The translations under genes and the position numbers were made by a program. The notes under the pieces were generated by a model. That model searched no databases, was not told where the DNA came from, and saw only the letters and a list, made by a program, of their open reading frames with translations. From assembly GCA_000004985.1 (NCBI GenBank), contig GG739615.1: a DNA stretch of 1,017 nucleotides. The stretch is one strand, 5' to 3'. The stretch is from Naegleria gruberi. Taxonomy: Eukaryota. Shown piece by piece: positions 1-1,001 of this stretch; position 1 is the first letter of the stretch, and each line of letters opens with the position of its first letter.

Positions 1-161
1 ATTTATATTTTCATTTAATTGATTTAAATTTGAATTTAAATTATTTATATTTAAATTATTAAAAATATTATTTAAATAAATTGTTTGATTAATAAATGGA
101 TAAATTGATTGTAAATATAAATCATTAACATTATCAGCAAATATTTTAACTATATTTCCAC
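1..161 (-). CDS. Probable exon 3, partial, running off the window at position 1. It is an ATG-less open frame encoding (G)GNIVKIFADNVNDLYLQSIYPFINQTIYLNNIFNNLNINNLNSNLNQLNENIN...
   Basis: The minus-strand frame with codon high-ends at 159, 156, ... 3 has no stop across 53 codons. In DNA this AT-rich that is improbable by chance, since TAA, TAG and TGA together would be expected roughly once per 10 codons. The + strand has stops in all three frames. The part at 100-161 has diverse codons (GGT GGA AAT ATA GTT AAA ATA TTT GCT GAT ...), typical of coding sequence. There is no Met, so an upstream splice acceptor is required. Confidence 0.4.
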
Positions 162-246
162 CTATTTTTAGTAATTTATAAATTAATTAAAAAATTAAAA
201 AAATTAAAAATTAAATATTTTTTAATAAAAAAAAATAAAAACAAAC
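162..246 (-). other. Candidate intron 2, 85 nt, GTTTGT...TACTAAAAATAG. The donor is non-consensus, so this is uncertain.
   Basis: Minus-strand sequence 246->162 is GTTTGTTTTTATTTTTTTTTATTAAAAAATATTTAATTTTTAATTTTTTTAATTTTTTAATTAATTTATAAATTACTAAAAATAG. Positions 176-241 are 100% A+T. The track's C-terminal FLFFFIKKYLIFNFFNFLINL uses only F, L, I, K, N and Y, which is exactly what translating pure A/T sequence produces. The only AG in the region (163-162) is preceded by a TACTAA-like branch motif. With the GT at 246-245 it gives a phase-1 junction, G|GT = Gly, that reads straight into the open frame at 1..161. Confidence 0.4.
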
Positions 247-562
247 CCTTTGAAATATCATTTGCAGAATTTAAAAAAGTTTCAAAAGTTTTAGAAATAG
301 TTTCAAATGTTTTTGAAATAACTTGACCACTTCCAATTCCATAAGAAACTGTAAAAATAATTCCAATTAAACTTCCAATTACAATTAAAAATATTAAAAA
401 TGAATAAATTATAATGATAAACATTTGATTACTATTTGTATATTCCTTTTTAGTAGATGATGATCTAACACAACATAATCTTCTAATAATATAAAATATT
501 ACAAATGTTATTGTAATTAAAATACCAATTAATATTATAACTCCGCACATAATAAGTGCGAA
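247..562 (-). CDS. Exon 2. It encodes two transmembrane helices, a cytoplasmic RRLCC loop and a tandem SKTFET repeat. If intron 2 is not used, the CDS instead continues to a TAA at 176-178.
   Basis: The translation is FATIMCGVIILIGILITITFVIFYIIRRLCCVRSSSTKKEYTNSNQMFIIIIYSFLIFLIVIGSLIGIIFTVSYGIGSGQVISKTFETISKTFETFLNSANDISK(G). The two hydrophobic stretches of about 23 and 30 residues map to nt 485..556 and 332..424. Composition stays coding-like down to about 247. From 241 down to 176 the + strand contains no G or C at all. Confidence 0.5.
278..319. repeat. Imperfect 21-bp direct tandem duplication (agtttcaaaagttttagaaat / agtttcaaatgtttttgaaat, 19 of 21 identical) inside exon 2. It encodes the duplicated peptide ISKTFET-ISKTFET.
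   Basis: Read directly from the + strand at 278-298 and 299-319. Each unit contains an inverted repeat of tttcaaa and tttgaaa; the copy in unit 2 (301-318) is perfect, 7 bp with a 4-nt spacer. Confidence 0.6.
544..560. other. GC-rich 5-bp inverted repeat, CGCAC-N7-GTGCG. In the mRNA this hairpin would sit just 3' of the intron-1 acceptor and enclose the ATG that the ORF track picked.
   Basis: On the + strand cgcac is at 544-548 and gtgcg at 556-560, with loop ataataa between them. It is the only GC-rich palindrome in an otherwise roughly 80% A+T window. Confidence 0.3.
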
Positions 563-629
563 CTATTGTAATCATTTAAATATATTATTAAATATTTACT
601 ATTTAAGTAATAATAAAAATAAAACATAC
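563..629 (-). other. Intron 1, 67 nt, GTATGT...ACAATAG on the minus strand. Spliceosomal and dictyostelid-type.
   Basis: Minus-strand sequence 629->563 is GTATGTTTTATTTTTATTATTACTTAAATAGTAAATATTTAATAATATATTTAAATGATTACAATAG. Removing it joins codon TAT (632-630) to TTC (562-560), which is exactly the frame of ORF 176..550. The open frame of that ORF in fact begins at 562 (F-A-T-I-M...), immediately after the TAG of the acceptor. A 52-bp gap between two same-strand ORFs is too short for a terminator plus a promoter. Confidence 0.55.
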
Positions 630-1001
630 ATATGAATATCTAACCCAAGAACATAAATCTAAATTATTTGGAGTTTCACTTTGAACAGATTTAAAATCAC
701 AATTTTTAAACCAATCTTGCCAAGTAGAGACATCACCATTATTATTAGTATTATTATTTGATGATGATTGTTGAATAGTAGTATAATAATCCAATGATGA
801 TGTTAATAATTCCATACTTGAAATAAATAAATTATTAGTAAATTCATGATAATGATGATGGAAAGATGATGATGAAATTAATTGATTTTCATATTGTTGT
901 TCTTCATGACCATTAGTGAATGTTATTGTTAATAATACTAATACTACTACTAATAACAATAAAACAGTCAATGATATTCTTGATAATGTTGGTGATATCA
1001 T
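630..1001 (-). CDS. Exon 1 of a minus-strand gene. It encodes a signal peptide plus a low-complexity ectodomain of 124 aa (MISPTLSR...SWVRYSY) and ends in phase 0 at a GTATGT donor.
   Basis: ATG is at 999-1001 (cat on +). The N-terminus MISPTLSR-ISLTVLLLLVVVLVLLTITF-TNG has the n-region, h-region and small-residue cleavage site of a classic signal peptide. The frame is open down to 630, and the next minus-strand bases (629-624) read GTATGT. The 8 residues VCFIFIIT that the ORF track adds (606-629) come from roughly 90% A+T sequence and look like intron read-through. Codon usage is Dictyostelium-like. Confidence 0.6.

Follow-up and report, generated by a model that had tools for sequence, protein, structure and literature searches.

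A probable short intron with a GTTTGT donor site in a prominin-like membrane protein gene of very A+T-rich protist DNA

U2-type spliceosomal introns with GT-AG borders have been described in A+T-rich protists, including Dictyostelium discoideum as well as Naegleria and its relatives. In D. discoideum, the median intron length is 103 nt and the commonest branch motif is ACTAAT (PMC2483917), and the median intron length in Naegleria lovaniensis is 80 nt (PMC6125883). Willaertia magna, a heterolobosean that branches next to Naegleria, has a very A+T-rich genome as well (24.8% G+C; PMC6892926; PMC11702301). The nearest relative of the gene analyzed here was C9374_007358 of N. lovaniensis (XP_044546481.1, abbreviated P0001; genomic locus L001), which carries the name "Prominin" in UniRef; PYSW is the accession prefix of the N. 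lovaniensis genome. The second intron of that gene (L001 3681-3886, 206 nt, 33% G+C) is a phase 1 intron that splits a Gly codon as G/GT (GAT ATT ACA G/gtgagt...aaaaag/GT GGT ACT GGT ATT; here and below, slashes within sequences mark intron positions or splice junctions).

The window, that is, the whole 1,017-nt stretch of DNA that was analyzed, had a G+C content of 18.7%, and every long ORF was found on the minus strand. A gene on the plus strand was rejected, the longest ORF of that strand being only 30 aa. The locus encodes a prominin-like multi-pass membrane protein, in a gene that comprises at least three exons and extends past the edge of the window (Table 1). We assign a probability of about 0.93 to the reading in which 246..162 is removed by splicing, as the initial annotation proposed, and represents the second intron of its gene, a conventional spliceosomal intron of the U2 type with GT-AG borders. 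In this model, the spliceosome would use GTTTGT at 246 and AG at 162, the transcript would be cut one base into a Gly codon (G/GTTTGT) and rejoined at AG/GT, and the exons would be ordered 1001..630, 562..247, and 161..<1 after removal of the introns 629..563 and 246..162. The spliced product within the window consists of 283 aa.

Table 1. Features of the predicted gene in the window, with intron 1 of two related loci.
Feature	Sequence	Position	Strand	Description
Start ATG	window	1001-999	minus	
Exon 1	window	630..1001	minus	24% G+C; within ORF 603..1001; ends ...CSWVRYSY
Intron 1	window	563..629	minus	67 nt; GTATGT...ACAATAG; phase 0; between Y124 and F125; 10% G+C
Exon 2	window	247..562	minus	21% G+C; ends ...NSANDISK+G
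Intron 2 (predicted)	window	162..246	minus	85 nt; GTTTGT...TACTAAAAATAG; phase 1; 4.7% G+C; 60% T (sense strand)
5' splice site GTTTGT (predicted)	window	241..246	minus	after exon bases A-G-G (249-247)
Run without G or C	window	172..241		70 nt; low-complexity, (AATTAAAA)n-like on the plus strand
TAA of read-through ORF	window	176..178	minus	within predicted intron 2; not the gene's stop codon
TACTAAA, branch-point-like motif	window	167..173	minus	putative branch A at 168
3' splice site AG (predicted)	window	162..163	minus	no other AG on the minus strand of 152-248
Exon 3 (partial)	window	1..161	minus	(G)GNIVKIFADNVNDLYLQSIYPFINQTIYLNNIFNNLNINNLNSNLNQLNENIN; 11% G+C; runs off the window edge
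Intron 1	L001	3238-3367		130 nt; GTAAGT..AATAG
Intron 1	L002	149-341		193 nt; GTAAGT..CTCAG

The initial annotation had described positions 176-241 as free of G and C, which slightly understated the length of the run, since it begins at 172. The run goes beyond chance: when the window was shuffled 20,000 times at the mononucleotide level, G/C-free runs of at least 70 nt occurred at a frequency of 5e-5, and the mean longest run was 27.5. A minus-strand ORF (550..176, 124 aa) reaches into this stretch, with its last 22 codons and its stop codon inside the G/C-free run, and ends in DISKGLFLFFFIKKYLIFNFFNFLINL (in longer form, NSANDISKGLFLFFFIKKYLIFNFFNFLINL). If the DNA were read through at this point, the gene would end at the TAA at 178-176 and encode a 252-aa protein with two transmembrane segments and a Phe-rich tail, and 1..161 would be either 3' UTR or an unrelated ORF. 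This reading draws on a frame that is open from 550 to 179. It also draws on the observation that A+T-only DNA can be coding at this locus, as exon 3 includes a second such run (50 nt, 33-82) that is coding by homology. Because of that run, a composition of 100% A+T is not in itself a signature of non-coding DNA here, and composition alone fails to separate exon from intron, exon 3 itself having only 11% G+C. The values for intron 2, 4.7% G+C and 60% T next to 24% and 21% G+C in exons 1 and 2, are nevertheless in keeping with an intron. The A/T-only tail had been taken as the signature of read-through; what stood of this claim was that the tail matches no homologue, and its composition alone was not diagnostic. 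Further, the tail frame is open for 23 codons, which was unremarkable: 16% of shuffles of that stretch were open as well, so that the open frame carries no signal.

Examination of the minus-strand dinucleotides confirmed that the phase of the GT at 246-245 fits the sole AG of the region, at 163-162, as had been claimed. Only two GTs occur in the area on that strand, at 246-245 and 242-241. In the exon 2 frame, a codon begins at position 247, and joining this base to 161 gives G/GT, the split Gly codon originally suggested, and enters the sole open frame of 1..161. The GT at 246-245 and the AG at 163-162 constitute the only GT-AG pair that links the exon 2 frame to the 1..161 frame. The exon 3 frame contained 0 stops in 53 codons, the two remaining frames having 8 and 11, and such an open frame arose in only 0.17% of shuffles. 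The predicted spliced junction reads ...TTTCAAAGG/GTGGAAATATAG..., and the corresponding product is ...NSANDISK-G-GNIVKIFADN...

Two other assignments were rejected. The donor at 242-241 is out of phase and reads TTG TGG AAA TAT AGT TAA, an immediate stop. A U12-type intron was discarded on the basis of the donor, which is neither ATATCC nor GTATCC. In addition, intron 2 had no match in an Rfam scan of the window, and RNA folding of intron 2 revealed no unusual structure and no embedded ncRNA (z = 0.28).

An exhaustive HMMER search with the spliced product among 1.84 billion representatives found four relatives: P0001 (915 aa; E 1.4e-43; query residues 83-280 in one stretch), P0002 (198 aa; E 1.2e-23; 157-281), P0003 (852 aa; E 1.4e-10; 101-241), and P0004 (817 aa; E 1.2e-07; 105-235). 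The matches to P0001 and P0002 both cross the junction residue G230. The C-terminal part of exon 1 matched residues 43-79 of P0001 and positions 56-148 of L002, the contig encoding P0002. Exon 2 corresponded to residues 80-184 of P0001 and also matched P0002, and exon 3 matched residues 185-235 of P0001, P0002, and the genomic positions 3883-4038 of L001 and ~670-821 of L002. In BLASTP, the spliced product and P0001, with which it shares 42% identity, aligned with 171 bits and without gaps over residues 144-279, the only gaps lying upstream, near residues 88-104. Across the junction, NSANDISKGGNIVKIFADNVNDLYLQSIYPFINQT pairs with TSAKDITGGTGIVKVFAQNINQLFKDNIYPLLNST of P0001, and the number of residues between DI and IV(K/Q) is exactly five in the window product, P0001, and P0002.

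The read-through product scored 135 bits against P0001, and its alignment ended exactly at G230; the tail had a counterpart in no homologue, and homology restarted at once at 161 in another frame. Moreover, the homologues are 789-915 aa long, so that a gene ending at 176 would be severely truncated. The splice at 246..162 was thus corroborated, in that the spliced product aligned without a gap to two independent relatives and the read-through tail did not, and we consider it highly improbable that the gene ends within this stretch. The 124-aa ORF with its Phe-rich tail is an artefact of unspliced DNA being read into a T-rich intron until a chance TAA.

It had also been anticipated that dictyostelid orthologues would conserve exon 3 but not the 176-246 reading. 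This pattern was found in P0001 and P0002, but the dictyostelid part of the comparison fell away: no dictyostelid homologue was among the matches from the 1.84 billion representatives, and the best match was heterolobosean. No match to the spliced 283-aa product was obtained in a word-indexed protein search, because its relatives share too few exact 5-mers with it. In exact look-ups, the products of two unspliced ORFs were absent from a 15-billion protein collection. Exact scans of metagenome and metatranscriptome contigs found neither a 24-mer spanning the spliced junction nor one from exon 2, and the source organism is therefore not in that collection.

P0002 originates from an ENA metagenome contig (L002; ERZ27237200 k141_217343, 1-1100), in which the sequence at the junction is contiguous: GAT ATT GTA AAT GGT GTG AAT ATT GTA CAG (DIVNGVNIVQ). 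The GGT of this segment pairs with the split Gly codon of the window, and L002 thus provides a genomic, uninterrupted equivalent of the proposed join between exons 2 and 3. The gene prediction behind P0002 is of the prokaryotic type: it begins with an internal Met of exon 2 and leaves the preceding exon as a gene of its own (149 aa). Intron 1 occupies the identical phase 0 site, between Y and F, in the window, L001, and L002, which makes the gene structures comparable. L002 contains intron 1 and lacks intron 2, indicating that the presence of intron 2 varies among relatives. P0004 (L003 2001-4454) and P0005, more distant members, are encoded by intronless ORFs in their contigs.

Errors are common in long A/T homopolymers, and the stretch under study holds A8-A9 runs. 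Such runs would be the source of error if 162-246 were in fact a homopolymer-rich coding stretch in which an assembly or sequencing frameshift had produced an artefactual change of frame. We judge this extremely improbable. About 28 extra codons would have no room in the homologue alignments, which are gapless without them, and stops are present in all three frames of 162-246. In addition, canonical GT and AG dinucleotides lie exactly at the borders, and N. lovaniensis has an intron there too.

The intron of L001 lies one codon upstream of the window site in the gapless alignment, an offset that could be due to compensating one-codon indels or to a 3-nt slide. A more specific scenario would be that intron 2 and the N. 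lovaniensis intron are one ancestral intron, displaced by a 3-nt slide between G/GT Gly codons, and/or that it is a regulated, often retained intron with a weak donor; this we regard as unlikely. Retention of the intron would lead to a shortened protein that has two transmembrane segments and a hydrophobic tail.

Returning to the predicted removal of 246..162, the choice of its 3' splice site was compared with that of the next AG (150..151, minus). Use of the latter would yield a 97-nt intron and the product ...DISK-V-KIFADN, either as the main form or as a minor isoform. This AG is also in frame, with G/TT encoding Val, and being located 12 nt downstream, it would drop the four codons G-G-N-I. 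It is 18 nt from TACTAA, a more usual spacing; in intron 2, the putative branch A (168) and the 3' end are just 6 nt apart, an unusually short distance. However, splicing normally takes the AG that comes first after the branch site, and without the four codons, P0001 and P0002 would no longer align gaplessly. The five residues shared between DI and IV(K/Q) favour the AG at 163-162 as well, N-I-V of the window pairing with G-I-V and N-I-V, respectively. Splicing at 151-150 was hence considered very unlikely.

For the AG at 163-162, the putative branch motif TACTAAA matches ACTAAT, the motif of D. discoideum, at 5 of 6 positions. The branch A was placed within the motif on the assumption that the yeast consensus applies, and an A upstream of TACTAAA may serve as the branch point instead. 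The donor GTTTGT differs from the intron 1 donor only at +3. It keeps G+1, T+2, G+5, and T+6 together with G-1, and has T at +3 and +4. In base pairing with U1, G-1, G+1, U+2, G+5, and U+6 can take part, whereas U+3 and U+4 cannot, and the site is for this reason weaker than GTAAGT. The literature gave no usable frequencies for donor hexamers in Dictyostelium or Naegleria, or for GTTTGT. The length of intron 2, 85 nt, is in keeping with short protist introns.

The N-terminus encoded by exon 1 is hydrophobic and is predicted from the sequence to comprise a signal peptide, followed by an N-terminal domain. On the plus strand, antisense to exon 1, a match to snoU18 was detected in Rfam (866-924), with 23.4 bits, below the gathering score of 47, and an E value of 0.51; it is most likely a chance match. 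Within intron 1, the segment TTACTTAAATAG (599-611, minus) is very similar to the sequence that ends intron 2, TTACTAAAAATAG (162-174). The first AG inside intron 1 would give a 31-nt intron followed by an immediate in-frame TAA, and is presumably skipped.

The exon 2 product would contain two predicted transmembrane helices, with a Cys-containing loop (RRLCCVRSS) between them, followed by the start of a large loop; the site of intron 2 lies at the start of this large loop, after the second transmembrane segment. Two tandem repeats with a 21-nt (7-codon) unit were present in the coding sequence, at 270-320 and 1-57. The repeat in exon 2 encodes SKTFETI-SKTFETF, and that in exon 3 encodes an N/L-rich, heptad-like stretch (NNLNINNLNSNLNQLNENIN).

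The significance of this assignment lies mainly in annotation, as an odd 124-aa ORF is replaced by a multi-exon prominin-like gene. It also adds one comparatively supported GTTTGT donor, from a protist genome that is very rich in A+T. Attribution of the DNA to a dictyostelid from its composition alone was unsafe, and a heterolobosean rich in A+T is no less plausible as its source. The source organism determines which splice-site matrix is appropriate, and the intron call is unaffected by it. An ordinary intron with a sub-consensus donor would be no surprise to specialists.

Regarding the protein family, similarity to prominins was indicated by the UniRef name of P0001, a match of P0004 to the Pfam family Prominin (PF05478), a length of ~800-900 aa, and five hydrophobic segments. 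P0004 matched PF05478 with an E value of 2.2e-8 and 33.1 bits, below the cut-off of 34.3 bits, and a precomputed table also assigned PF05478 to this protein. Inspection of P0001, P0003, and P0004 by eye suggested two large loops in addition to the five hydrophobic segments, with a loop containing Cys following the first transmembrane helix. In contrast, P0001 and P0003 had no match to Pfam Prominin, and the window product gave only sub-threshold Pfam matches, without Prominin among them; the nearest related-looking one was Tweety (E 0.18). A search of PDB sequences with the family profile gave no meaningful match, and thus no relative of solved structure by sequence. "Prominin-like" is therefore a reasonable label, and membership in PF05478 is not established.

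Compared with the U2-type GT-AG introns of A+T-rich protists such as D. discoideum, Naegleria, and its relatives, intron 2 differs in its donor, GTTTGT instead of GTAAGT or GTATGT, and in the short distance of 6 nt between its branch-like motif and the AG. It resembles them in its borders, its length, its richness in A+T and in T, the CTAA-type motif near its 3' end, the restoration of the reading frame, and a site that lies within one codon of an orthologue's intron. Relative to intron 2 of N. lovaniensis C9374_007358, which lies one codon upstream, is longer (206 nt) and less A+T-rich (33% G+C), and begins with a strong GTGAGT donor, the window intron occupies a homologous gene in the same phase 1, with the same G/GT split of a Gly codon in the DI-xxxxx-IVK segment, and both genes carry the upstream intron between Y and F.
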